This document shows positions 1 through 26,181 of a DNA stretch of 64,000 bases, piece by piece. Both the position numbers and the translations under genes were made by a program. The DNA is from Escherichia phage EcSzw-2, in sequence record MH791400.1; one strand, written 5' to 3'. The notes under the pieces are model-generated. The model was not told where the DNA came from, did no database searches, and was given only the letters and a program-made list of their open reading frames with translations. Numbering within the stretch: the stretch's first letter is position 1; each line of letters starts with the position of its first letter.

Positions 1-50
1 AACATCCTCTTAAAAGCTCTGTATAGCTCTGTATAGCCTCTTTTAAGCCC
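1..50. repeat. ~50-bp direct repeat, copy 1 (copy 2 at ~3641-3690); contains internal tandem GCTCTGTATA x2
   Basis: aacatcctcttaaaagctctgtatagctctgtatagcctcttttaagcc recurs essentially identically at ~3641-3690. Confidence 0.8.
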
Positions 51-99
51 CTTGTAAGGTAACTATAGCCCAAGTAACTGTAAAGGGCTTTACAGGGCT

Positions 100-240
100 T
101 TATAGGGGCTTTAAAGGGTATGCCAAGTTGACTAACAAGGATTTAACAAGGTCTTAACAATGATTTAACATACCCCTAACAAGGGTAACTATGCAGGAGT
201 TGTTAAGAATTTGTTAAGAAAATGTTAAGGGGGCTAGCAT
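100..240. repeat. array of TAACAAG / CTTAACA heptamers in direct then inverted orientation (candidate protein-binding array)
   Basis: taacaag at ~134,147,175 plus ttaacaa/ttaacat variants; inverted copies tgttaag x3 at ~200-235; far above chance for a 7-mer. Confidence 0.6.
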
Positions 241-719
241 TTACGTAACTTTTAAGCCACTTTTAAGCAACTTTATAGCCCCTATAACATACTTTTANNN
301 AGACAATAACAAGCCCTTTTTAGTAGTTCACAAGGGACTAACGAGATGATAAAGCTTGATACCTTATAAGATTCTTTTAAGGCCATAGAAAGCTCTATAA
401 ATGGCTTTTAAGAGTGGGTTAATATGATTGCTTAAGTTAGGTTGATAAGCTGTTATAGGGCTTTATAGAGCGTTTTAGAGGGTTGCCCTCCCCTTTGGGT
501 TATGGGCTTATATTTAAGTTGATTTGATAAGATGATATAGAGTAAGCTATAGAGTTATTATTTTTAAGGTCTGGTAAGATTCTCTAAGAGTCTGCATAGG
601 GATTGCATAGACGTAAAAAAGCCCCTATGAGATAGATTCTATGAAGGTAATTCATTACCTGAATNAGAAAGGGGCTGTTAAGGTATCTGGGGCTATTTTA
701 GCCCCGTTGCGGCGTCTCG

Positions 720-968
720 TTAGTTATGACCGTCCTTGTCATAGTAAAGAGAAATGATTTTATCGTTCCAATAGTGCCAATGATTACCATCTTTCACCGC
801 CTCTTGGATAGCTGCAATCCAAAAATCCGATTCAGGGTTATAATCCTTGACAATCTGGCTAACAAGGCTTTTCACCATATCAAAAGCACTATCTGTACTG
901 ATAATGTCAAATTTAACATCCAGTGAGTAAAAACCATATTCGTTAACAGTTGCGCGGATAGTTGCCAT
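720..968 (-). CDS. hypothetical early protein (82 aa)
   Basis: ORF directly preceded by conserved promoter/leader cassette ending ...CCTAAACTGGAGAaTCAAAG-ATG. Confidence 0.65.
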   Translation of the reverse strand: MATIRATVNEYGFYSLDVKFDIISTDSAFDMVKSLVSQIVKDYNPESDFWIAAIQEAVKDGNHWHYWNDKIISLYYDKDGHN

Positions 969-1055
969 CTTTGATTCTCCAGTTTAGGATTGATTTGGTA
1001 AAGCTCTTTATCTGGGGCTTATACTATCGAACTATAAACCCCTTGTAAAGCACTT
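969..1055 (-). promoter_or_regulatory. early promoter + conserved leader/RBS cassette, type A (TTTACA-N17-TAGTAT, GGAG RBS)
   Basis: On minus strand: TTTACA (~1044-1049), 17-bp spacer, TAGTAT (~1021-1026), then leader aagccccagataaagag...cctaaactggag; inverted repeat ggggtttata/tataagcccc brackets the -10. Confidence 0.6.
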
Positions 1056-1253
1056 TTAATACATTTTATCGAATAACTGGTTTATTGCAGCAACTGCATG
1101 ATTTTTAAAGTTTAAGTTGTTAGTGTTATCAGAAAACACTACTTCAGTGTTGTAAGTGATTTCTAGTGATACAAACGAACCATTTACATTTAAAGAATAG
1201 GATACACCTTTTAAGCACCACAAGGTAGACAGCTTTTGCATTAAATCTTTCAT
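1056..1253 (-). CDS. hypothetical early protein (65 aa)
   Basis: ORF preceded by type B promoter/leader cassette with GGAG RBS. Confidence 0.6.
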   Translation of the reverse strand: MKDLMQKLSTLWCLKGVSYSLNVNGSFVSLEITYNTEVVFSDNTNNLNFKNHAVAAINQLFDKMY

Positions 1254-1330
1254 CTTGAATCTCCAGTTTAGGAAGTAAGCTTGATTGCTTGATAGATACT
1301 ATAGGGCTTTTAGAAAGTGATTGCAAGCCC
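1254..1330 (-). promoter_or_regulatory. early promoter + leader cassette, type B (TTGCAA-N17-TATAGT)
   Basis: Minus strand: TTGCAA (~1321-1326), 17 bp, TATAGT (~1298-1303), leader ...cttcctaaactggagattcaag-ATG; promoter spacer can form hairpin agggctt/aagccct. Confidence 0.55.
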
Positions 1331-1454
1331 TTTTTAGTCTTATCTATAAAGAATCTTTTAAGTGATTCCTTTTAGATAAAACCCCCTCGAACAAATGTAC
1401 TATTGTCAAGGGGTATCGTCAAGTAATTTTTGAAAGTTTTTTGTAAGTTGTTGA

Positions 1455-1796
1455 TTAACTTATAAAGATTTTTTCAGGCTTGACGTAGTTCATTTTTTGG
1501 CCTTTAAGTAAATCACTCCAGATTAAAGCGGCAATGTGACCATAACCGGATTCACGTAGCGCTTTCATCGTGTTGACTTTTGTTTCAAATCGTGTTGCGT
1601 AGTATTCACTGTTAAGGGTTGTTTTGTTCCCTTCATTGTCTGTATGAATGATTTGCATCACATGAAACGGGCTAACATCCTCTCCGAGATTCCATTGCTC
1701 AAAGTATTTTAAACACTGCATAGGCGACATATTATCACTGACTCGTGTAGACCATGATGAATTTTCTTTATCGGTAATTACGGTTACATGTGCCAT
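1455..1796 (-). CDS. hypothetical early protein (113 aa)
   Basis: ORF with upstream conserved cassette and GGAG RBS. Confidence 0.65.
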   Translation of the reverse strand: MAHVTVITDKENSSWSTRVSDNMSPMQCLKYFEQWNLGEDVSPFHVMQIIHTDNEGNKTTLNSEYYATRFETKVNTMKALRESGYGHIAALIWSDLLKGQKMNYVKPEKIFIS

Positions 1797-1870
1797 CTTT
1801 GAATCTCCAGTTTAGGAAAGCTCTTTATCTGGGGCTTATGGTATCAAGCTTTTAAGCCCCTTGTANTTGT
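1797..1870 (-). promoter_or_regulatory. early promoter + leader cassette, type A variant (ambiguous base at 1866 in the -35 region)
   Basis: Conserved leader aagccccagataaagagctttcctaaactggagattcaa; -10-like TACCAT; hairpin-capable ggggcttat...ataagcccc. Confidence 0.5.
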
Positions 1871-2099
1871 AAATCTCTAAAAATTCATCTTCATTAACAT
1901 TTTCGTAGTATTCTGCGTTTTCGTCTTCACCTTGTAAGACATAGCAGCCCATTCTAGACGATTTCGGGTATTCTTGTCTAGCAATATTGCAAGCTTCTAC
2001 CGCGTTTTGTTTAGTTCCTTCAAAGGATTCTAAAACCCCATAATGGCAATTATTAGCCCCAGAGCATACAGCAAGCATGAGATAGATTGTAGTTAACAT
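1836..2099 (-). CDS. hypothetical protein with N-terminal hydrophobic signal-like segment (87 aa; 3' end reads through the downstream promoter cassette and the ambiguous base)
   Basis: ORF; N-terminus MLTTIYLMLAVCSGANNC is signal-peptide-like; no own cassette, probably co-transcribed with the upstream 185-aa gene. Confidence 0.45.
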   Translation of the reverse strand: MLTTIYLMLAVCSGANNCHYGVLESFEGTKQNAVEACNIARQEYPKSSRMGCYVLQGEDENAEYYENVNEDEFLEIYXYKGLKSLIP

Positions 2100-2162
2100 G
2101 ATTTAAGCCCCTTGCAAGCCCCTATGCGGGGCTTTTTAATGTTGTTAGTGTGATTGTATGGT

Positions 2163-2720
2163 TTACGCTAAAACGTCGTTTACAGTGCTTTCTGTTAAGC
2201 TTTCCTGCATTGCGTCTAGCATGTTGCAATAGATAATTGAACTATCATCAGTATTTTGAATAAAGCTTGCAACTTCTTCAAGTTTTTCATCAACATAGCC
2301 TAAATTTGGATTTTTTAAGTTAGGTACAAAAAACGGTGAATACATAGAGTTAAATTCTGTGATGTAAACCTTTTTAATCCAATCTTTATCAAAAGATTCT
2401 GTAAAGCTTGCGATATCACTCATATTTTCACAAGACCAATCATCTTGCAATTCATATTCTGGAATGTCAAGTTCTAAGATAACAATATTTTGGGTTTTCA
2501 TCTGAAAAGCTGCTGTGATTGTAGCACTATCAAGAGCATTGCGTAAACCTTCATTAGTAATTTCTTCAGCATTCATAGAATCAAGGTCATAGAATTTATT
2601 AACAGGGTAAACGTAAAAACAACCATCACTATCAGAGCAATTCCAAGCGCCTGATGGTTTATCACCGCCATTGATGAGGTTTACAAAGTTTTCTTGAGTA
2701 GTACCGTGAAAGCATTTCAT
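2163..2720 (-). CDS. hypothetical early protein (185 aa)
   Basis: ORF preceded by conserved leader/RBS (promoter part diverged or truncated; n at 2773). Confidence 0.65.
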   Translation of the reverse strand: MKCFHGTTQENFVNLINGGDKPSGAWNCSDSDGCFYVYPVNKFYDLDSMNAEEITNEGLRNALDSATITAAFQMKTQNIVILELDIPEYELQDDWSCENMSDIASFTESFDKDWIKKVYITEFNSMYSPFFVPNLKNPNLGYVDEKLEEVASFIQNTDDSSIIYCNMLDAMQESLTESTVNDVLA

Positions 2721-2775
2721 TTTGAATCTCCAGTTTAGGATTGATTTGGTAAATCTCTTTATCTGGGGCTATNAA
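2721..2775 (-). promoter_or_regulatory. conserved leader/RBS cassette (type A, truncated promoter part)
   Basis: ttgaatctccagtttaggattgatttggtaaatctctttatctggggctat matches the other cassettes. Confidence 0.5.
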
Positions 2776-2849
2776 ATTTGGATTCACTCCGTTCATCTTG
2801 GGTCACCATATCATGTGATAAAATATCTACCCTTCTTAACAGCCTACTT

Positions 2850-3010
2850 AATCTTACTCTCTATATATATATAGTTATATAGTACTATATAGTATCTTAG
2901 TCCCTTAACAGTGAGTCTCTATAGCCCTCTGTATAACCCTTCTATAAAGCCCTATAAGCATCCCTCTTCCAAACCTATACAATCACCTTAACCATCTCTT
3001 CATAGCCCCT
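2850..3010. repeat. phased (~10-11 bp) CTATA(G/A) / TATATAG short repeats in noncoding AT-rich DNA
   Basis: ctatatatatatagttatatagtactatatagtatc...ctctatagccctctgtataacccttctataaagccctataagc; helical-period spacing suggests intrinsic bending. Confidence 0.5.
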
Positions 3011-3349
3011 TAGAAGCCCCTATACCCATCTTAATCTCTATGTCAGAGATAGTACCCTCTATAGGGTGTTCACTAGGTTCTACTAATCCTCTNGTTGTTC
3101 TTAAGAATCAACCTCTTAGGCTTATCCTACAAGGTCTAACACGTTATTAACAAGGTATCTTATAAGCCTGTATTTACCTGTTTTATACAGAATACTATAT
3201 AGATATTTATGCAATTCTTAAAATTTTTATAAAATAGAACTGTCAAGTCATTTTTTAGGGTCTTGAGAGCAACTCAAAAATATCTGTTTAGGATGTATAT
3301 CTGCTTGGTAGCCCTTAACAGCCTTGTAACATACCCTTTGCAAAATTTT

Positions 3350-3600
3350 AAAATATCATTAACAAATTCTTAACAACTCTATCAATCTCTTAACATCTCT
3401 TCAAAGGTCTTAACAGATTCTTAACAGGACTAACAAGGGTGTAACAGTTATTTAACAAGTGCTACATAGTCTTTACAGAATCTTAACAGATGACTAACAA
3501 GAGCTAACAAGTTAATTTTAAAGGGTTATTTTGTTAAGATAATTAACAAGTTCCTAACAAGTGTTTAATCCTTTTAACAAGCTGTTAACATGGTCACTAT
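3350..3600. repeat. dense array of (C)TTAACA(A/G)(G) repeats, ~15 copies, ~11-22 bp spacing
   Basis: tcttaacaactc, tcttaacatctc, gtcttaacagattcttaacaggactaacaagggtgtaacag...tttaacaagtg...gactaacaagagctaacaag...ttaacaagttcctaacaagtg...tttaacaagctgttaacatgg. Confidence 0.7.
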
Positions 3601-3640
3601 CTCTTCTCTTCTCGTTCCCTTAACTTCTCAGTGAATCTCT

Positions 3641-3690
3641 AAACATCCTCTTAAAAGCTCTGTATAGCTCTGTATAGCCTCTTTTAAGCC
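3641..3690. repeat. ~50-bp direct repeat, copy 2 (matches window positions 1-50)
   Basis: aaacatcctcttaaaagctctgtatagctctgtatagcctcttttaagcc. Confidence 0.8.
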
Positions 3691-3935
3691 NTAGTTTTCT
3701 TTGAGAAAATTAGTTTAACTGCAACCGTGGGAAGTTCTTCAATACTTGTAAAAAGCGTTACCTTTTGAGTAACAACCTTGTAACCATTTTTTGCAGCGTA
3801 TGCCGTGAAACGATTAACCGTATAACTATAAGTTTTTGATGTGTTGTCTGACATATGGTACAAATAGGGCTTGCCTAAATTTTGAGATTGTGTTAACAGT
3901 CGGCAAGTATCAGGAACGTTTAAATAATTAAGCAT
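3684..3935 (-). CDS. hypothetical early protein (83 aa; 3' end overlaps repeat copy 2 and ambiguous base 3691)
   Basis: ORF preceded by type B promoter/leader cassette. Confidence 0.55.
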   Translation of the reverse strand: MLNYLNVPDTCRLLTQSQNLGKPYLYHMSDNTSKTYSYTVNRFTAYAAKNGYKVVTQKVTLFTSIEELPTVAVKLIFSKKTXA

Positions 3936-4020
3936 TTAGATTCTCCAGTTTAGGAAGTGGGATTGCTTGCCCGTCTGATAAGTAATTTAAGCTATTTAAA
4001 AACCAGTGTCAATAGATTTT
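3936..4020 (-). promoter_or_regulatory. early promoter + leader cassette, type B (TTGACA-N17-TAAATT)
   Basis: Minus strand TTGACA (~4007-4012), 17 bp, TAAATT (~3984-3989), leader acttatcagacgggcaagcaatcccacttcctaaactggagaatctaa-ATG. Confidence 0.55.
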
Positions 4021-4425
4021 TTAAAGTTCTGCGTAAATTGCATCACAGATATCACGAAAATCATAGCTTGTCAAGTTACGTTGTAACCATGTTGCGAAAA
4101 AATCAGCTATTGCAAAATTTGCATCATACTCAACAGATAACCACACTTTTACAGCAAATCGAAACATTTTCAAGTCAAGTTCTTTATTCATTACTTTTGA
4201 TTTGCCTAACATGTCAACCATTTCATATTGTGCGCCGTCAAGTGTAACACCTGATGCAACATTTGCAAGTGAATTTTTTACGCTTTCAACGTCTAAGATT
4301 GCACCTTGAATCTTTCCGATAATGTTATGCAGTGTTTCGTCTGGTGCTGCTGATGTAATTACGTTGATGCGATTAACGGTCAAACGTGCTTTCAGGATTG
4401 CAGTGTCACGAGTATTCATAGCCAT
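4021..4425 (-). CDS. hypothetical early protein (134 aa)
   Basis: ORF with type A cassette and GGAG RBS upstream. Confidence 0.65.
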   Translation of the reverse strand: MAMNTRDTAILKARLTVNRINVITSAAPDETLHNIIGKIQGAILDVESVKNSLANVASGVTLDGAQYEMVDMLGKSKVMNKELDLKMFRFAVKVWLSVEYDANFAIADFFATWLQRNLTSYDFRDICDAIYAEL

Positions 4426-4510
4426 TTTTAAATCTCCAGTTTAGGGGTTATCGATAAAATCTCTTTATCTGGGGCTATACTAGCAAACTTTATAACCCCA
4501 TGTAANAGAC
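4426..4510 (-). promoter_or_regulatory. early promoter + leader cassette, type A (TTACAT/TTTACA-N17-TAGTAT; n at 4506)
   Basis: Conserved cassette sequence; the -35 lies inside the 3' end of the upstream ORF. Confidence 0.55.
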
Positions 4511-4777
4511 TAAATACAACTTTTTCCCGTTAACAATGATGTAACTTACACCGCTATTGCTGTAAACATCTTGATAGATTCTGCGTAACTTGCCTGAATA
4601 GCGCACTTTCCAAGATGTAGGAATCTTTTTACCGTATCCGGTGGATGTTTTTTGTAAACCTGCTAATTGCCAATCTAAAATGTGTTGTTCTGCTGTTAAC
4701 TCTTCAAAGTTTAATACGCCGTCTACATAGTGCTTTAAAGTAACGTTTAAGGTGTGACCATTATTTGTAGTATACAT
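4490..4777 (-). CDS. hypothetical early protein (95 aa)
   Basis: ORF preceded by type B cassette. Confidence 0.6.
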   Translation of the reverse strand: MYTTNNGHTLNVTLKHYVDGVLNFEELTAEQHILDWQLAGLQKTSTGYGKKIPTSWKVRYSGKLRRIYQDVYSNSGVSYIIVNGKKLYLVXYMGL

Positions 4778-4870
4778 TTTGAATCTCCAGTTTAGGAAGT
4801 GGGCTTGCTTGCCCGTCTGATAAGTAATTTACTTGTTTCCGTTACCAGTTGCAAGCCCTTTTTAGAAATT
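4778..4870 (-). promoter_or_regulatory. early promoter + leader cassette, type B (TTGCAA-N17-TAAATT)
   Basis: ctaaaaagggcttgcaactggtaacggaaacaagtaaattacttatcagacgggcaagcaagcccacttcctaaactggag on the minus strand. Confidence 0.55.
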
Positions 4871-5193
4871 TATTTCCGTTTGCTTATCTCGTGAACAATA
4901 ACAGCGTGATAATCTTTCAAATTACTAATATTTAAAGCATTTAGTAAAGCATTATAATCATCAACTAACTGAAAATCACCGCTTAGAATGTCACTAACCT
5001 GATATGTGTTAGCCTTGAATCTGAAGCCCATCTCTAAACGCTTTAATTGTTCTACGTTTAAACGCTCTAGAAAGGACGTCACAAGGTTATTATTGATTTG
5101 CCTTGTGATTGCATCACTTGCCGCCTGATGCGCTTTATAGGCTTTATACAGTGCTAAAATAGCAATAAATAAGGCAACTCCAGAAATTAGCAT
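4870..5193 (-). CDS. hypothetical membrane protein (107 aa, N-terminal TM helix)
   Basis: ORF; N-terminus MLISGVALFIAILALYKAY is hydrophobic; start overlaps stop of upstream ORF (ATGCTAA), so translationally coupled. Confidence 0.6.
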   Translation of the reverse strand: MLISGVALFIAILALYKAYKAHQAASDAITRQINNNLVTSFLERLNVEQLKRLEMGFRFKANTYQVSDILSGDFQLVDDYNALLNALNISNLKDYHAVIVHEISKRK

Positions 5194-5483
5194 GATGATT
5201 TACCTTTATGAAATAGTTTACCAGTGTGACTAATCTCAAAAGAATCTATCATATCTTTTGTTGATTTAACAGAACTTTTATTTGCATTGTCATAGATATC
5301 TACCTGAAGCAATGGCTTTTTGTATTCTTTACAAAAGTTCCAAATACAGACAACAACTTCTTTACCATTGATTTTTCCGTGATACCATTCTGTTACTTCA
5401 TGAGTACGGCGCATAGATTCTACAAATTTGATATCTTGTAAAAGTTTGCTCAACTTGGAACGTACATTTGCAGCAATAAACAT
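5187..5483 (-). CDS. hypothetical early protein (98 aa)
   Basis: ORF with type A cassette upstream. Confidence 0.65.
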   Translation of the reverse strand: MFIAANVRSKLSKLLQDIKFVESMRRTHEVTEWYHGKINGKEVVVCIWNFCKEYKKPLLQVDIYDNANKSSVKSTKDMIDSFEISHTGKLFHKGKSSC

Positions 5484-5573
5484 TTTAGAATCTCCAGTTT
5501 AGGATTGATTTGGTAAATCTCTTTATCTGGGGCTATNCTTATCAACCTGATAACCCCATGTAAAGCAATTTAT
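5484..5573 (-). promoter_or_regulatory. early promoter + leader cassette, type A (n at 5537)
   Basis: TTTACA-N17-TAAGnA plus conserved leader and GGAG RBS. Confidence 0.5.
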
Positions 5574-6086
5574 TTAGATATCAAAAATATTCATCATTAA
5601 ATCTTTCAAGGCTTCTAAACGTTCCATGACTTCAGATTCTGCGTCTGCGTTGCTTACTTCCTCTTTTAGTCTATCCTCTAAATCGTCGCCGTCGCTATAG
5701 CACCAATCAAAGGCATATCCAAGATAAAAACTATCTAAAACCGTGTTTCCGTTTGCAGCTACAACTTTTGCAGATAGGCTATATTCTGAAGCCTCTAAAT
5801 CCCTTTCTAGTTCTTTCTGTAAGCTGATGTAAGCCTCTCGTGATGGATTTTCCCGGCCTTGTTTTGCATAGTCGCTAGAAAGCTGTTTAAGGCTATAGCG
5901 TAAAGGGATTGCATATTCAAATTCATTACGTTGATAGTTAGGATTCTTAATAGTTACCCCGCCTTGATGGTTGTTTGTAAATTCCCAATCACTGATGTTA
6001 TGGCTTGCTTCATAGCAGTTAACAGCTTCATATATGATAGAGAATTTCTCTTTTACAACTTCAAAGGTAGCGTCTACAGTTTTCAT
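5574..6086 (-). CDS. hypothetical early protein (170 aa)
   Basis: ORF with type A cassette upstream. Confidence 0.65.
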   Translation of the reverse strand: MKTVDATFEVVKEKFSIIYEAVNCYEASHNISDWEFTNNHQGGVTIKNPNYQRNEFEYAIPLRYSLKQLSSDYAKQGRENPSREAYISLQKELERDLEASEYSLSAKVVAANGNTVLDSFYLGYAFDWCYSDGDDLEDRLKEEVSNADAESEVMERLEALKDLMMNIFDI

Positions 6087-6171
6087 TTTGAATCTCCAGT
6101 TTAGGATTGATTGTAAAGCTCTTTATCTGGGGCTTATATTAGCAACTCATAAACCCCATGTAAAGCACTTT
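6087..6171 (-). promoter_or_regulatory. early promoter + leader cassette, type A (TTTACA-N17-TAATAT)
   Basis: Minus strand TTTACA (~6159-6164), 17 bp, TAATAT (~6136-6141), then conserved leader and GGAG RBS. Confidence 0.6.
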
Positions 6172-6429
6172 TTAGATTAAATTTGCAGTTAATGCCAAGT
6201 GCATTTTATAACCTTGTATAGTGTAAACATTGGTTTTACCAATAGTCTTTACACCTTTGAAAAGGTTGTAAGAGTTATGCTTTAAGTTTAATTGCTTGTC
6301 ACACTTTACGCCCCATCTTACAGCAGAATCTTTCCCGTTGTCAATCACTTTTCCGTCTAAATCTTTTGCCAGTAAACGAGCGTTATCACGAGTTTTTGCA
6401 TTAACTACTACGTTTTTGATGATAGCCAT
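6172..6429 (-). CDS. hypothetical early protein (85 aa)
   Basis: ORF with type A cassette upstream. Confidence 0.65.
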   Translation of the reverse strand: MAIIKNVVVNAKTRDNARLLAKDLDGKVIDNGKDSAVRWGVKCDKQLNLKHNSYNLFKGVKTIGKTNVYTIQGYKMHLALTANLI

Positions 6430-6518
6430 TTTTGAATCTCCAGTTTAGGGGTTATTGATAAAATCTCTTTATCTGGGGCTTATACTATCGAACTATAAAC
6501 CCCCTGTAAAGCACTTTA
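6430..6518 (-). promoter_or_regulatory. early promoter + leader cassette, type A (TTTACA-N17-TAGTAT)
   Basis: Near-identical to the cassette at 969-1055. Confidence 0.6.
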
Positions 6519-6899
6519 TTAGCTAATTTTAAAGATAGTCACATAGCCATCACTACCAATCATCTGAGAAACACCAGCTTTCTCGACATTGTAACCCATT
6601 TTATCAAGATGGTAAATTGCATCTTCATAGCCGTAGGCATCACCTTGATAACGTCTCTTCTCACATTTTATCAAGGTTTTACCACGTCCAGCAAGTGCAT
6701 TAATGATAGCTTTATCACCTGATAAACTACCATCTAACATAGTTGCGCGATAATGGTTTATTTTGTTGCCATTTACATCATACTTAAAATTATATGCGTG
6801 AACAACAATTATTTTACCTTTGAATTTTTCATCAAGTGTTTTCTCCAGTACATCGCGGAAGTTTTCTTTATTGATGAATTTAGGCGCACGATATTTCAT
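6519..6899 (-). CDS. hypothetical early protein (126 aa)
   Basis: ORF with type A cassette upstream. Confidence 0.65.
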   Translation of the reverse strand: MKYRAPKFINKENFRDVLEKTLDEKFKGKIIVVHAYNFKYDVNGNKINHYRATMLDGSLSGDKAIINALAGRGKTLIKCEKRRYQGDAYGYEDAIYHLDKMGYNVEKAGVSQMIGSDGYVTIFKIS

Positions 6900-6980
6900 T
6901 TTGAATCTCCAGTTTAGGATTGATTATAAAGCTCTTTATCTGGGGCTTATGGTATCAAGCTTTTAAGCCCCTTGTANGCA
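6900..6980 (-). promoter_or_regulatory. early promoter + leader cassette, type A variant (n at 6977)
   Basis: Same variant as 1797-1870 (ggggcttatggtatcaagcttttaagcccc). Confidence 0.5.
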
Positions 6981-7135
6981 ATAATTTTTATAACTTCTTT
7001 TAGTGTGATGTTTTCGCCATTTGTCAAGGCTAAACATTTGTTACCAGTGCATGACAAGTAACTAAACGAGACTTTACCAGTTTTAGAAAATCCGTCAAGC
7101 CCTTTGTAAGTGATGATAGAGTTTTCTTTTATCAT
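6947..7135 (-). CDS. hypothetical small protein (62 aa; C-terminus reads through the downstream cassette)
   Basis: ORF directly follows the 84-aa ORF without its own cassette; probably co-transcribed. Confidence 0.4.
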   Translation of the reverse strand: MIKENSIITYKGLDGFSKTGKVSFSYLSCTGNKCLALTNGENITLKEVIKIIXYKGLKSLIP

Positions 7136-7146
7136 TCATCAAGCCC

Positions 7147-7401
7147 TTAAACGTCATAATAGTAAATTGCAGTATGTCTAATATGCTTTCTTGTGTGAGT
7201 TGTCAAGTAACAATCTGAATTAATTGACGTGTTTACATATGTATCATAATCTTTCTCTGATATACGTTGCCACACATCACAAATTAGCATATAAAAGCGA
7301 CGATGTTTAGTCTCAGTATTATCTACAATCATTAACTCACGTTGATATAACATTTTGAATCTCCAGTTTAGGAAGTGGTCTTGTTTGCCCGTCTGATGCA
7401 A
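7147..7401 (-). CDS. hypothetical early protein (84 aa), first gene of the early array
   Basis: ORF with type B promoter/leader upstream. Confidence 0.6.
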   Translation of the reverse strand: MHQTGKQDHFLNWRFKMLYQRELMIVDNTETKHRRFYMLICDVWQRISEKDYDTYVNTSINSDCYLTTHTRKHIRHTAIYYYDV

Positions 7402-7460
7402 ATACTAAATAACTTTGTTTTGCAGGTCAAGCAAATTTTTAAAAATATTTTCAGGAATTG
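7402..7460 (-). promoter_or_regulatory. early promoter + leader, type B (TTGACC-N17-TAGTAT)
   Basis: Minus strand: ttgacc tgcaaaacaaagttatt tagtat ttgcatcagacgggcaaacaag... Confidence 0.55.
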
Positions 7461-7550
7461 CCAGAGATGAACGGGCGCACGACTACCACAAAACATAGCA
7501 CAAATCAAGAATTATTTTTCAGTTCTCTACAGATTTTTCTCTTGACTTTT

Positions 7551-16259: not shown

Positions 16260-16275
16260 AACATTCTCCAGAAAT

Positions 16276-16296
16276 TAAAAAGGCTCCCGTAGGAGC
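16276..16296 (-). terminator. rho-independent terminator
   Basis: minus strand ggctccTACGggagcc + ttttt downstream of NAMPT-like gene. Confidence 0.7.
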
Positions 16297-16312
16297 CTCT
16301 TATAATACTTAT

Positions 16313-18139: not shown

Positions 18140-18159
18140 GTTTTAATCTCTCTCAAAGT

Positions 18160-18180
18160 GGGGCTTTGCAGCCCCTGATT
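18160..18180 (-). other. GNRA-loop GC hairpin (ggggcu-GCAA-agcccc) between Prs-like and NAMPT-like genes; no strong U-run
   Basis: ggggctttgcagcccc on + strand; same element at ~26159; relatives at ~13302 and ~49775. Confidence 0.5.
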
Positions 18181-26144: not shown

Positions 26145-26181
26145 GGTTTCTCCAAAAGGGGCTTTGCAGCCCCCTGTTTAG

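Follow-up and report, generated by a model that had tools for sequence, protein, structure and literature searches.

The minus-strand array of small genes in the analysed window, the whole stretch of 64,000 nucleotides from Escherichia phage EcSzw-2, is organised around a repeated element of about 90 bp, which we read, with a probability of about 0.7, as a composite expression cassette combined with a homology patch, similar in design to the promoter-early stem-loop (PeSL) of T4-like phages and independently arisen. Each cassette would serve one small accessory gene or one coupled pair. It would lead from the stop codon of the upstream gene, set in an A/T-rich stretch, through a host sigma-70 promoter and a G-run/C-run stem-loop into a short leader, rich in A/U, whose GGAG ribosome-binding site precedes the ATG. 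The array, a 7-kb block, is a real and tidy feature, and it is not a new kind of system.

Twelve exact copies (no mismatches) of the leader core CCTAAACTGGAGA were found between 976 and 7372, all on the minus strand, and no further copy with up to one mismatch was found across the whole 64-kb window. Only 0.13 copies are expected by chance and 12 were reached in none of 100 shuffles, which bears out the twelve minus-strand copies that the initial annotation had placed before small ORFs; at three mismatches, extra matches outside the array occurred at chance level only. The core is followed after 6-7 nt by an ATG that starts an ORF of 65-185 aa. We counted 15 ORFs, in agreement with the proposed array of about 15 genes; three of them (6947..7135, 4870..5193 and 1836..2099) have no cassette of their own. 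Terminators bound the array on both sides (7783-7824 and 615-676), no terminator-like site was found on the sense strand within it, and no other repeat family of the cassette kind was found in 7500-64000. Eight cassettes are of type A, all with the invariant 16-mer AGCCCCAGATAAAGAG and a promoter of the form TTTACA-N17-TANNNT (TTTACA-17-TAGTAT or TAATAT where intact in the window). The other four, type B, have the form TTGACA/TTGCAA-N17-TAAATT/TAGTAT, with TTGACC-17-TAGTAT, TTGCAA-17-TAAATT, TTGACA-17-TAAATT and TTGCAA-17-TATAGT as the individual hexamers. Hexamers and 17-nt spacers were thus as first described, but the claim of a sigma70 promoter in every copy held for only 11 of the 12, since the copy at 2721-2772 ends at N 2773.

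The window belongs to an Ounavirinae (Suspvirus) phage of the Felix O1 type, with 99.7% identity to Escherichia phage EcSzw_1. The source record is an unverified scaffold, and the window's nine N-runs, which the initial annotation did not mention, all lie within 1-7000; five cassettes contain such gaps. Comparison with phage SUSP2 revealed that each N-run conceals about 10 nt, which take in the stop codon and AT-rich stretch as well as the start of the -35 element, so that the weak-looking promoters at gap-bearing copies and the ORF C-termini '...YKGLKSLIP' are assembly artefacts. An N falls in the -35 of three copies (6973-6978, 4501-4506 and 1862-1867) and another, at 5537, in the -10 region of the fifth cassette. 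A non-coding block (2774..3690, assigned to neither strand) has Ns at both edges, 2773 and 3691. Judged from sequence comparison, it is almost certainly a scaffolding misplacement lying outside the array: its final 49 nt repeat window positions 1-49, the EcSzw_1 record has the same pieces in another joining order with NNNNNNN at the junction, and the homologous DNA lies downstream of the last array gene in SUSP2, finno and Bas63.

The following features, all on the minus strand, are given in the direction of transcription, each cassette with the ORF that it would drive. The upstream boundary is an intrinsic terminator after a Macro-domain gene (7783..7824; 17-bp stem, then a T-run), the counterpart of t13 of Felix O1. 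Cassette 1 (type B, 7354..7438; TTGACC 7425-7430, TAGTAT 7402-7407, core 7360-7372) has an A/T-rich UP-like stretch upstream and precedes ORF 7147..7353 (68 aa), which matches phrog_5293. The first cassette was of type B in 12 of 12 related arrays where it was classifiable. The cassette-less ORF 6947..7135 starts 11 nt past the preceding stop and matches phrog_14219 (residues 1-52 of 53); its real product is about 53 aa, the length of the SUSP2 homologue, the final 10 codons being an artefact of N 6977. The same N damages the -35 of cassette 2 (type A, 6900..6986; -10 TACCAT 6949-6954, core 6906-6918, stem GGGGCTTA/TAAGCCCC), which is intact in its SUSP2 counterpart and precedes ORF 6519..6899 (126 aa). 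Cassette 3 (type A, 6430..6518; TTTACA 6505-6510, TAGTAT 6482-6487, core 6437-6449; RNA fold -22.8 kcal/mol, z -2.5) precedes ORF 6172..6429 (85 aa), and cassette 4 (type A, 6087..6172; TTTACA 6159-6164, TG-extended -10 TAATAT 6136-6141, core 6093-6105; -26.2 kcal/mol, z -4.3) precedes ORF 5574..6086 (170 aa, pI 4.4). Cassette 5 (type A, 5484..5572; TTTACA 5559-5564, -10 TAAG(N)AT with N 5537, core 5491-5503) precedes ORF 5187..5483 (98 aa), whose end is overlapped by ORF 4870..5193 (107 aa); the two are probably translationally coupled. In cassette 6 (type B, 4778..4862; TTGCAA 4849-4854, TAAATT 4826-4831, core 4784-4796; -23.6 kcal/mol, z -3.3) the pairing GGGCTTGC...GCAAGCCC flanks the promoter, and the ORF is 4490..4777 (real length about 90 aa).

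Cassette 7 (type A, 4426..4514; (N)TTACA 4501-4506, TAGTAT 4477-4482, core 4433-4445) precedes ORF 4021..4425 (134 aa), and cassette 8 (type B, 3936..4020; TTGACA 4007-4012, TAAATT 3984-3989, core 3942-3954), the promoter part of which is a 39-bp direct repeat listed for Felix O1, precedes ORF 3684..3935 (about 82 aa). Only the 3' half of cassette 9 remains (type A, 2721..2772; AGCCCCAGATAAAGAG and core 2727-2739), the promoter half being lost at N 2773; its ORF is 2163..2720 (185 aa). ORF 1836..2099 (real length about 77-78 aa; phrog_4640, residues 1-77 of 77) is preceded by a hairpin, GCCCCGCATAGGGGC (2116-2134), and a cassette remnant, TTGCAAGGGGCTTAAATC-ATG. Cassette 10, a short form of type A (1797..1875; -10 TACCAT 1838-1843, core 1804-1816) with its -35 damaged by N 1866, precedes ORF 1455..1796 (113 aa). 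Cassette 11 is type B-like (1254..1334; TTGCAA 1321-1326, TATAGT 1298-1303, core 1260-1272; -18.5 kcal/mol, z -2.0), with a stem AGGGCTT/AAGCCCT over the spacer, and precedes ORF 1056..1253 (65 aa). Cassette 12 (type A, 969..1057; TTTACA 1044-1049, TAGTAT 1021-1026, core 976-988; stem GGGGTTTATA/TATAAGCCCC; -24.6 kcal/mol, z -4.1) precedes the array's last gene, ORF 720..968 (82 aa). The downstream end is a terminator at 615..676 (AGCCCCT...AGGGGCT, then TTTTT, with N 665 inside), the counterpart of t23 of Felix O1; its intact SUSP2 version folds at -32 kcal/mol.

In a set of 110 unique type-A copies, drawn from many genomes, the -35 TTTACA was present in 109, the 17-nt spacer in 104 and a -10 of the form TANNNT in 109, the latter in 13 different hexamers; TG occupied -15/-14 in 51, and the invariant AGATAAAGAG starts 7-8 nt past the -10. 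The positions critical for sigma-70 are fixed and the other -10 positions vary, which supports the earlier view of promoter-plus-leader units before individual small genes. A GGGG...CCCC stem of 9-10 bp extends across the spacer and the -10. In 88 unique copies, pairs 1-4 were G-C; pair 5 was T·G in 42, C-G in 45 and T-A in one; pair 7 was T-A in 73 and A-T in 15; pair 8 was A-T in 71 and T-A in 15; and pair 9 was T-A in 21, T·G in 21, A-T in 28 and C-G in 13, with mismatches in five. These substitutions preserve complementarity: the final 2-3 bases of the -10 change in step with the 5' arm, and its T-12, A-11 and T-7 are constant. In Erwinia phage SunLIRen, GGTG...CACC replaces GGGG...CCCC, a double compensatory change. 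Many of the compared sequences are related, so that these counts exceed the number of independent events. RNAalifold gave an extended fold of three helices in which 99.4% of cells were paired, compared with 60-63% when partners were slid by one column, and single type-A sequences folded at -23 to -26 kcal/mol (z -2.5 to -4.3). The middle helix (CUUUA:UAAAG) did not vary and is hence neutral on pairing, neither for nor against; the outer helix showed one compensatory type only (G-C 73, U-A 10), which may be a single inherited event.

Because the type-A stem-loop lies over the spacer and the -10, it is missing from the cassette's own transcript, whose predicted first base is the A of AGATAAAGAG, 7-8 nt past the -10. 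It would instead be carried by read-through RNA from the upstream gene, where its most likely effect is either to attenuate read-through or to cap the upstream message and make it more stable; lacking a U-tract, it is not a canonical intrinsic terminator. The type-B stem-loop would lie inside the transcribed 5' leader. The intrinsic terminators on both sides would insulate the array, with entry via a type-B promoter with its UP-like element.

About a dozen near-identical tandem cassettes can also double as homology patches, recombination between which would delete, duplicate, insert or swap single gene-plus-cassette units and homogenise the cassettes of one lineage. Type A was found at 1444 places in 287 phage records, from Felixounavirus, Suspvirus, Citrobacter-infecting and Shigella-infecting relatives and Erwinia phages (Kolesnikvirus). 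Gene-order maps of 18 related arrays showed 13 gene families distributed as a mosaic, present in some arrays and absent from others, one tandem duplication and alternative genes at one slot, a pattern that, on sequence comparison, indicates gain, loss, duplication or swapping of single genes by crossovers within cassettes. Three-way junction alignments placed crossovers in the -35/5'-arm region or in the shared 24-nt leader, and one mapped crossover joins a type-B and a type-A cassette. Junction analysis showed that cassette 10 is a recombinant relative to SUSP2, gene x16 having been lost through a leader crossover. Crossovers in repeats are the ordinary expectation of homologous recombination and no proof of a dedicated mechanism. 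Neither the stem-loop over the type-A promoter nor the cassettes as recombination points had been noted in the initial annotation.

Other roles for the hairpin can be weighed against these data. The extended type-A fold, in which a 3x3 internal loop separates a 5+5-bp lower stem from a 9-10-bp upper stem, resembles the RNase III sites of T7, and it is possible, if unlikely, that RNA is processed here as at the early T7 sites. Cleavage of polycistronic read-through RNA in or near the internal loop would leave the upstream message with a protective hairpin and create a downstream 5' end near the point at which the embedded promoter starts, so that cleavage and promoter would yield the same monocistronic mRNA. 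This reading bears on the action of the hairpin and conflicts with neither the promoter nor the recombination role. It fits the stable, interrupted helix of about 20 bp, the near-complete consensus pairing, the stem without a following U-tract, which speaks against simple termination, and the G·U pairs, which make the fold sense-strand-specific, G·T pairs being A·C mismatches on the opposite strand. Pairing would also account for the conserved AGATAAAGAG and the bases upstream of the -35, and type A is never an array's first cassette, where upstream RNA is absent. However, the two lower helices vary too little for covariation to confirm them; AGATAAAGAG is equally explained by an initial transcribed sequence requirement; and type-B cassettes lack the extended fold, cassette 8 giving z +0.45. 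That the inverted repeat is instead a double-stranded DNA operator, with a dimeric phage protein on GGGGYTTA...TAAGCCCC repressing all type-A promoters when later transcription takes over, appears highly improbable. Its place over the -10 is the classic operator position, and the PeSL authors likewise speculated on a protein recognising GGGG...CCCC, but T stands opposite G at pair 5 in about half and at pair 9 in a quarter of copies, which makes the half-sites asymmetric in duplex DNA and retains single-strand pairing. Moreover, the loop ranges from 7 to 15 nt, and pairs 7-9 vary freely if paired, with four pair types at pair 9 and GGTG/CACC in Erwinia phages; this freedom marks base pairing rather than sequence-specific contacts with a protein.

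The invariant leader invites a comparable question. Phage T4 RegB cuts GGAG in early ribosome-binding sites, and T4 RegA is a repressor. By analogy, CCTAAACTGGAGA might be bound or cut by a trans-acting factor that shuts off the early set jointly, which we consider rather improbable. The 13-mer is identical in 12 of 12 copies, the linker before and the spacer after it differing between them; its conservation reaches 7 nt upstream of the SD, beyond what 16S rRNA pairing explains; and a bare GGAG site precedes 10 of the 12 array ORFs against 14 of 67 others in the window. Against this, no candidate factor was found, leader-internal crossovers are demonstrated, and Erwinia relatives have a different leader, CCCTTAYAAAGGAATCAAAA, with an AGGA-type site, that is nevertheless uniform per genome, as concerted evolution alone predicts. 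The conserved leader, which had first suggested coordinated post-transcriptional control, is equally well explained by concerted evolution via recombination. The cassettes might even be merely duplicated promoter-plus-RBS DNA with a functionless passenger hairpin, alike from gene conversion only; concerted evolution is evident from a leader that is uniform yet specific to its lineage, and two window cassettes have apparently been exchanged between positions relative to SUSP2. We regard this as quite doubtful, because gene conversion gives no pairing-preserving compensatory changes amid sequence divergence, the -10 holds TA...T while its remaining bases follow the 5' arm, and across genera the cassettes are better conserved than adjoining coding DNA (83-89% versus 72-84% identity for flanking genes between SUSP2 and a phiSUSP1-type genome).

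The preferred reading, a PeSL-like composite cassette, draws on the design published for the PeSLs of T4-like phages. In these, a stem-loop covers the -10 or sits between it and the -35, the stems are of the GGGG...CCCC kind and include G-T pairs, the stop codon upstream falls within AT-rich sequence, and the 3' end carries an SD and ATG. The Ounavirinae cassettes share this design and behaviour, but no sequence homology between the two was found, which points to an independent origin. The elements had been entered only as direct repeats for Felix O1 (2010) and in the wV8 GenBank record, listings absent from the initial annotation. Early timing would be consistent with end-point RT-PCR on Felix O1 for array genes 16, 20, 21 and 22, which peak at 5 min, a class that includes structural genes too; array genes 14, 17, 19 and 23 peak at 25 min. 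We found in the literature no transcription-start mapping for any Ounavirinae phage and no reporter or 3'-end data on the array promoters.

As first annotated, the ORFs carry no recognisable motif; no Pfam domain was found in any of the 15. The model of ORF 5574..6086 (pLDDT 92) gave no informative structural match. For ORF 2163..2720, structure prediction gave an ADP-ribosyltransferase fold, and this predicted fold would be compatible with a host-takeover role.

The repeat array is real, stands well above chance and is more structured than the initial annotation had described. The leader core CCTAAACTGGAGA, a 13-nt motif common to both cassette types, occurs in 12 exact copies, every one on the minus strand (976-7372); chance would give 0.13. 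No further copy at ≤1 mismatch was found outside the array in the whole 64 kb, looser searches of the window added matches at chance level only, and the rest of the window held no comparable repeat family. The core lies 6-7 nt 5′ of the ATG of ORFs of 65-185 aa, and a GGAG Shine-Dalgarno (SD) sequence lies 6-7 nt 5′ of the ATG in 12/12 cassettes. All 12 cassettes fall within 720-7460, before small ORFs, and gene content there varies among the 18 arrays compared. Eight of them (type A) have an invariant 16-mer, AGCCCCAGATAAAGAG, together with a promoter of the form TTTACA-N17-TANNNT; the remaining four (type B) have a -35 of TTGACC, TTGACA or TTGCAA, a 17-nt spacer and a -10 of TAGTAT, TAAATT or TATAGT. 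Three of the 15 array ORFs are without a cassette of their own and adjoin or overlap the preceding gene. The earlier description of the cassettes was thus correct, as was its statement that the ORFs bear no recognisable motif. Pfam searches with the 15 ORFs returned sub-threshold noise only and no domain, and all 15 matched PHROG families, every one of unknown function. Because these matches extend over the full length of each ORF, the ORFs are real, conserved genes. For the acidic 170-aa ORF, a confidently predicted structure model gave no informative match.

The array corresponds to Felix O1 genes 14-23, between the Felix O1 terminators t13 and t23, and is flanked in the window by terminators at 7783-7824 and 615-676. 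Over positions 700-7500 the window is 99.7% identical to EcSzw_1 (Ounavirinae, Suspvirus), about 94% to SUSP2 and about 80% to Felix O1-type phages. The promoter at the entry to the array is of type B and has an A/T-rich, UP-like stretch; the first cassette is of type B in 12/12 related arrays where it could be classified. The region between the terminator and the first cassette (7480-7850) contains three strong copies of TCATTTTNAANTTGTGCAGGT at 7603, 7687 and 7760 (0.05 expected) and a weaker fourth. Its minus strand also has a C-rich tract of 40 nt (~7553-7592). Read from the plus strand, this tract consists of G-runs, GGGGAGAGGGGGAGTAAGAGGGGGAGAGGGGCAGGG, and is G-quadruplex-like, which is unusual given the mean of ~39% G+C among the relatives of the phage.

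The source record is a short-read scaffold broken at repeats. Its nine N-runs (298-300, 665, 1866, 2773, 3093, 3691, 4506, 5537 and 6977) all lie in 1-7000, mostly at cassette edges; five of the nine are inside a cassette or at its 5′ edge. Judged by the intact cassettes of SUSP2, each N stands for about 10 missing bases, running from the stop codon through the A-rich stretch into the first bases of the -35. The EcSzw_1 record, flagged UNVERIFIED, has Ns at the corresponding sites and its pieces are joined in a different order. PHROG profiles stop exactly at the cassette start. The 'weak' -35 hexamers at 6973-6978 and 1862-1867 (intact in SUSP2), the truncated cassette at 2721-2772 and the C-terminus YKGLKSLIP common to two ORFs were all rejected as biological features and attributed to N-gaps. 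The non-coding block 2774-3690 (918 bp) has Ns on both sides, and its final 49 nt repeat window positions 1-49. EcSzw_1 shows another order of the same pieces around this block, with NNNNNNN at the junction; the homologous DNA of SUSP2, finno and Bas63 lies 3′ of the final gene of the array, where the array meets convergently transcribed genes, and SUSP2 has a complete type-A cassette at the position of the block. The block was judged a scaffolding error, and a real insertion or an internal origin at 2774-3690 was rejected. The true order is almost certainly the Macro-domain gene, a terminator, ~375 nt of non-coding DNA, the 15 genes, a terminator and ~1.6 kb of non-coding DNA.

Cassettes were collected from 62 IMG/VR loci and GenBank relatives; the promoter was analysed in 110 unique type-A copies and the stem in 88 unique copies. 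The -35 TTTACA is present in 109/110 copies and the 17-nt spacer in 104/110; the -10 conforms to TANNNT in 109/110 and is represented by 13 different hexamers. Judged by consensus and conservation, both cassette types carry sigma-70-like -35 and -10 elements, with a spacing inside the 16-18 nt range expected of PeSL-type cassettes. The type-A stem, GGGG(C/T)TTAN paired with NTAAGCCCC, starts one base past the -35 and ends right before AGATAAAGAG, so enclosing the spacer and the -10 in a helix of 9-10 bp. The first four pairs are G-C; the fifth is T·G in 42 of the 88 copies, C-G in 45 and T-A in one; pairs 7 and 8 flip jointly between T-A/A-T and A-T/T-A; and the ninth occurs as T-A, T·G, A-T or C-G, with five mismatches. 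The Erwinia phage SunLIRen, which belongs to another genus, has GGTG...CACC in the stem. The 3′ part of the -10 varies only jointly with the 5′ arm while TA...T stays constant. That both are constrained at once is the best evidence for selection on promoter and hairpin alike, and it makes the cassette a neat natural case of a single DNA segment answering to two simultaneous demands, with TA...T of the -10 kept and the rest co-varying for the hairpin.

The fold is that of the sense strand, because its G·T pairs would turn into A·C mismatches in the complement, and most simply it belongs to RNA. ViennaRNA extended it by two outer helices, AAAGU:GCUUU and CUUUA:UAAAG, to ~20 bp in total with the inner stem (-23 to -26 kcal/mol; z -2.5 to -4.3). 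In RNAalifold with the 88 sequences, 99.4% of cells were paired in the extended fold vs ~60% after a one-column slide. The outer helices are nearly invariant, with G-C 73 / U-A 10 as the sole compensatory type, and are best regarded as plausible. So extended, the fold encloses the whole promoter from ~-43 to +15. In nearly all correctly anchored copies the 7 nt preceding the -35 context read ATAAAGT, TAAAAGT, GTAAAGT, AAAAAGT or ATAAATT; this stretch mostly contains a TAA stop and is intact in SUSP2. Type-B hairpins lie in the transcribed 5′ leader and vary (GGGGAGG..CCTTCCCC, GGGGC..GCCCC or GGGC..GCCC), and in some type-B cassettes the pairing brackets the promoter instead. A search of Rfam with window positions 1-9000, both strands, gave no match at E≤1.

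Several functions can be considered for the type-A hairpin. An operator acting as duplex DNA was rejected on the G·T pairs. A promoter formed by single-stranded DNA, as in plasmid Frpo, was dropped as well: the predicted fold pairs the -35 with the initial transcribed sequence and leaves the -10 partly in the loop, so that the hairpin would not rebuild the promoter. An intrinsic terminator was rejected for want of a U-tract: the type-A stem is followed by AGATAAAGAG and no U-run, and a scan of the minus strand within the array found no terminator-like site. The invariant AGATAAAGAG begins 7-8 nt past the -10; for this reason the transcript of a type-A promoter should start at AGATAAAGAG and hold only the 3′ half of the palindrome. 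The leader of such a transcript would be unstructured, rich in A/U and ~40-47 nt long, and would contain GGAG and ATG; read-through RNA from the upstream gene would carry the entire hairpin. For the hairpin in that RNA we favour attenuation or 3′-end protection over classical termination, because there is neither a U-tract nor a terminator-like sense-strand site in the array. Processing by an RNase III-type enzyme is a live alternative. Phage T7 has RNase III sites that are interrupted hairpins of about two helical turns, placed between the early genes of one unit and devoid of a U-tract. The type-A hairpins resemble them in being interrupted, of about two helical turns, without a U-tract and situated between successive early genes; the T7 early genes differ in having three promoters at the start of the unit, whereas in the array hairpin and promoter occupy the same DNA. 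A more elaborate proposal joins these elements. The type-A cassette would be a promoter in DNA and, in read-through RNA, a ~20-bp hairpin cut by a host double-strand RNase beside the cassette's own start, so that primary and processed 5′ ends would be the same and the upstream message would keep a protective 3′ hairpin; the lineage-specific, invariant leader might also be recognised by a phage factor able to shut down all the genes together. We consider the full combination unlikely, at perhaps one chance in seven.

The initial annotation had proposed that the conserved leader serves coordinated post-transcriptional control, a view in keeping with the bare GGAG site found in 10/12 array ORFs vs 14/67 other ORFs. 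This explanation is weakened by the comparison between lineages. SunLIRen retains the promoter-hairpin part and has the leader CCCTTAYAAAGGAATCAAAA in every copy; a leader that is lineage-specific yet uniform within a genome is the signature of concerted evolution. We infer promoter activity, start sites and timing from the sequence. The only experimental pointer to timing is a hint from RT-PCR on Felix O1, where array genes 16, 20, 21 and 22 peak at 5 min and genes 14, 17, 19 and 23 at 25 min, in a data set whose early class also includes structural genes. A literature search on Felix O1-like phages found no transcription start site or transcriptome study.

Gene-order maps of the 18 arrays revealed mosaic presence and absence of single genes, one tandem duplication and alternative genes at one slot. 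Four junctions were aligned, a handful of examples, and in three the crossover lies within a cassette. A three-way junction alignment placed the crossover of a two-gene deletion in the -35/5′-arm region; another deletion fused a type-B promoter to a type-A leader within 24 shared nt; and window cassette 1797-1875, compared with SUSP2, records the loss of one gene via a crossover in CCTAAACTGGAG. At the fourth junction (w3, absent in L011) the breakpoint is at the upstream edge of the cassette, where the A-rich stretch and the stop codon lie. Relative to SUSP2, two cassettes of the window seem to have traded places. When SUSP2 is compared with a phiSUSP1-type genome, cassettes are better conserved than genes (83-89% vs 72-84%). 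The related genome L011 (IMGVR_UViG_2974556886_000001) has a tandem duplication of an 85-aa gene homologous to window 6172..6429, with a type-A cassette before each copy, and three additional small genes absent from the other arrays. Cassette fragments are also found in the window beyond the 12 full copies, and look like relics of past recombination. The 49-nt repeat opens with TTACAAGGGGCTTAAAAG, which consists of a -35 and a 5′ arm (41-58 and 3673-3690); a mini-hairpin GGGGC...AGCCCC followed by AGATACC lies 3′ of the last array gene (689-705); and TTGCAAGGGGCTTAAATC is joined directly to the ATG of ORF 1836..2099 (2100-2121). The hairpin GCCCCGCATAGGGGC at 2116-2134 separates ORFs 2163..2720 and 1836..2099; its T-run is on the plus strand only, and it scores as an antisense terminator, not as one for the array strand. 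The homologous site in the wV8 record is annotated as a sense-strand terminator.

The array closely resembles the promoter-early stem-loop (PeSL) cassettes of the T4-like phages, described for RB49/phi1, PST and nt-1 (Arbiol et al., 2010, PMC2839356; Comeau et al., 2014, PMC4122927). In those descriptions a stop codon stands upstream in an AT-rich stretch, followed by a sigma-70-like promoter, a stem-loop mostly between the -35 and -10 or over the -10, with GGGG...CCCC arms and G-T pairs, and an SD and ATG at the end; the cassettes cluster before ORFans in hyperplastic regions, and crossovers occur within them. Every structural feature of PeSL that could be tested seems to be present in the array cassettes: a composite unit of ~100 bp, an AT-rich stop codon, sigma-70-type hexamers, a G-run/C-run stem-loop, and SD plus ATG. 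The likeness extends to a second PeSL subclass, whose stem-loop is 3′ of the -10, and to the clustering before small ORFs of unknown function in a variable region, with indels and replacements between relatives and crossovers inside cassettes. Unlike PeSL, the array belongs to a different phage subfamily, the Ounavirinae, and has no detectable sequence homology; it has a 13-nt leader core common to two promoter types and invariant within a lineage, and the type-A fold reaches ~20 bp. Terminator activity and mini-circles have been shown experimentally for PeSL.

A blastn search with the type-A cassette matched 287 phage records in 1444 places. The 40 records listed, taken at even steps down the ranking, were 84-90 kb genomes of enterobacteria and Erwinia phages, together with one 22.5-kb partial, and none had the length of a T4-like genome; a further match was a 147-kb record labelled Staphylococcus phage SA1. 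Neither homology to nor occurrence in T4-like phages was found in the blastn listings, the present genome being Ounavirinae/Suspvirus, and the PeSL papers discuss T4-like phages only. Since the structure matches and homology is absent, the array suggests an independent, convergent instance of a PeSL-like design. The principle that regulatory cassettes both express and shuffle accessory genes would thereby hold for a second phage group unrelated to the T4-like one. This group is in wide use, with Felix O1 and related phages employed for typing, biocontrol and therapy. In practical terms the cassettes break short-read assemblies, as in this record, and mark swap sites for accessory genes in phage engineering.

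The design is a known one, and its elements had been recorded before in this phage group. Whichard et al. (2010, PMC3185647) printed 57-bp and 39-bp direct repeats of Felix O1; the former, CTTTACATGGGGCTTAAAAGTCTGTAAAGTAAGCCCCAGATAAAGAGCTTTACCACT, is a type-A cassette and the latter, TTGACACTGGTTTTTAGATAGATTAAATTACACATCAAC, a type-B promoter. Both were given there as direct repeats only, missing from the promoter list of that paper, and no role as promoter, stem-loop or site of recombination was assigned to them. The same elements are annotated DR_1 to DR_9 in the wV8 record EU877232, features that the wV8 paper does not discuss, and one type-B copy is labelled 'promoter' in the AYO145A record. 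In halovirus HF2 (PMC8707807), too, reiterated intergenic repeats proved to be promoters; HF2 differs in being an archaeal virus with another promoter type, and the abstract of that paper names no stem-loop or leader module. As with morons and integron cassettes, single accessory genes are movable together with their expression signals; unlike integron cassettes, the array has no integrase or attC-type site, and mobility rests on homology between the regulatory cassettes. The PeSL authors drew the same contrast.

Among the array genes, ORF 2163..2720 (185 aa) is predicted to adopt an ADP-ribosyltransferase fold. A PDB sequence search with this ORF found nothing meaningful. A preprint independently noted the same resemblance for its Bas63 homologue gp107 and reported gp107 to be more important on E. 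coli S17-1; together with the predicted fold, these data fit a host-takeover role. The gene just upstream of the array (7854-8636, minus strand) encodes a Macro-domain protein (Pfam PF01661, E 2.7e-8), annotated 'phosphatase' in relatives. The two proteins suggest a putative writer/eraser pair of ADP-ribosylation among the early genes, and the ADP-ribosyltransferase-fold protein, encoded downstream of the Macro-domain gene, is a candidate for host takeover or counter-defence.

Two further repeat types were observed in the window. In the non-coding DNA 3′ of the early array (132-228 and 3315-3590), copies of the hexamer TGTTAR are packed into dense, phased arrays. Five minus-strand copies follow one another at an exact 11-bp spacing (132-181), three inverted plus-strand copies do so at 11 bp (201-228), and ~19 further copies occur at 3315-3590; the window holds 153 copies vs 119 ± 12 expected, with the whole excess in these two segments. 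The region is kept in >200 Ounavirinae genomes, and the pattern resembles iterons or some other set of protein-binding sites, possibly of an origin or a packaging site. Outside the early array, a GC-rich terminator hairpin (GGCTCC..GGAGCC or GGGGCTGCAAAGCCCC) is fused to the RBS of the next minus-strand gene at 10299-10335, 12093-12129 and 16262-16298 and at 18151-18175 and 26149-26173. These terminator-plus-RBS repeats are a type of intergenic module distinct from the array cassettes.
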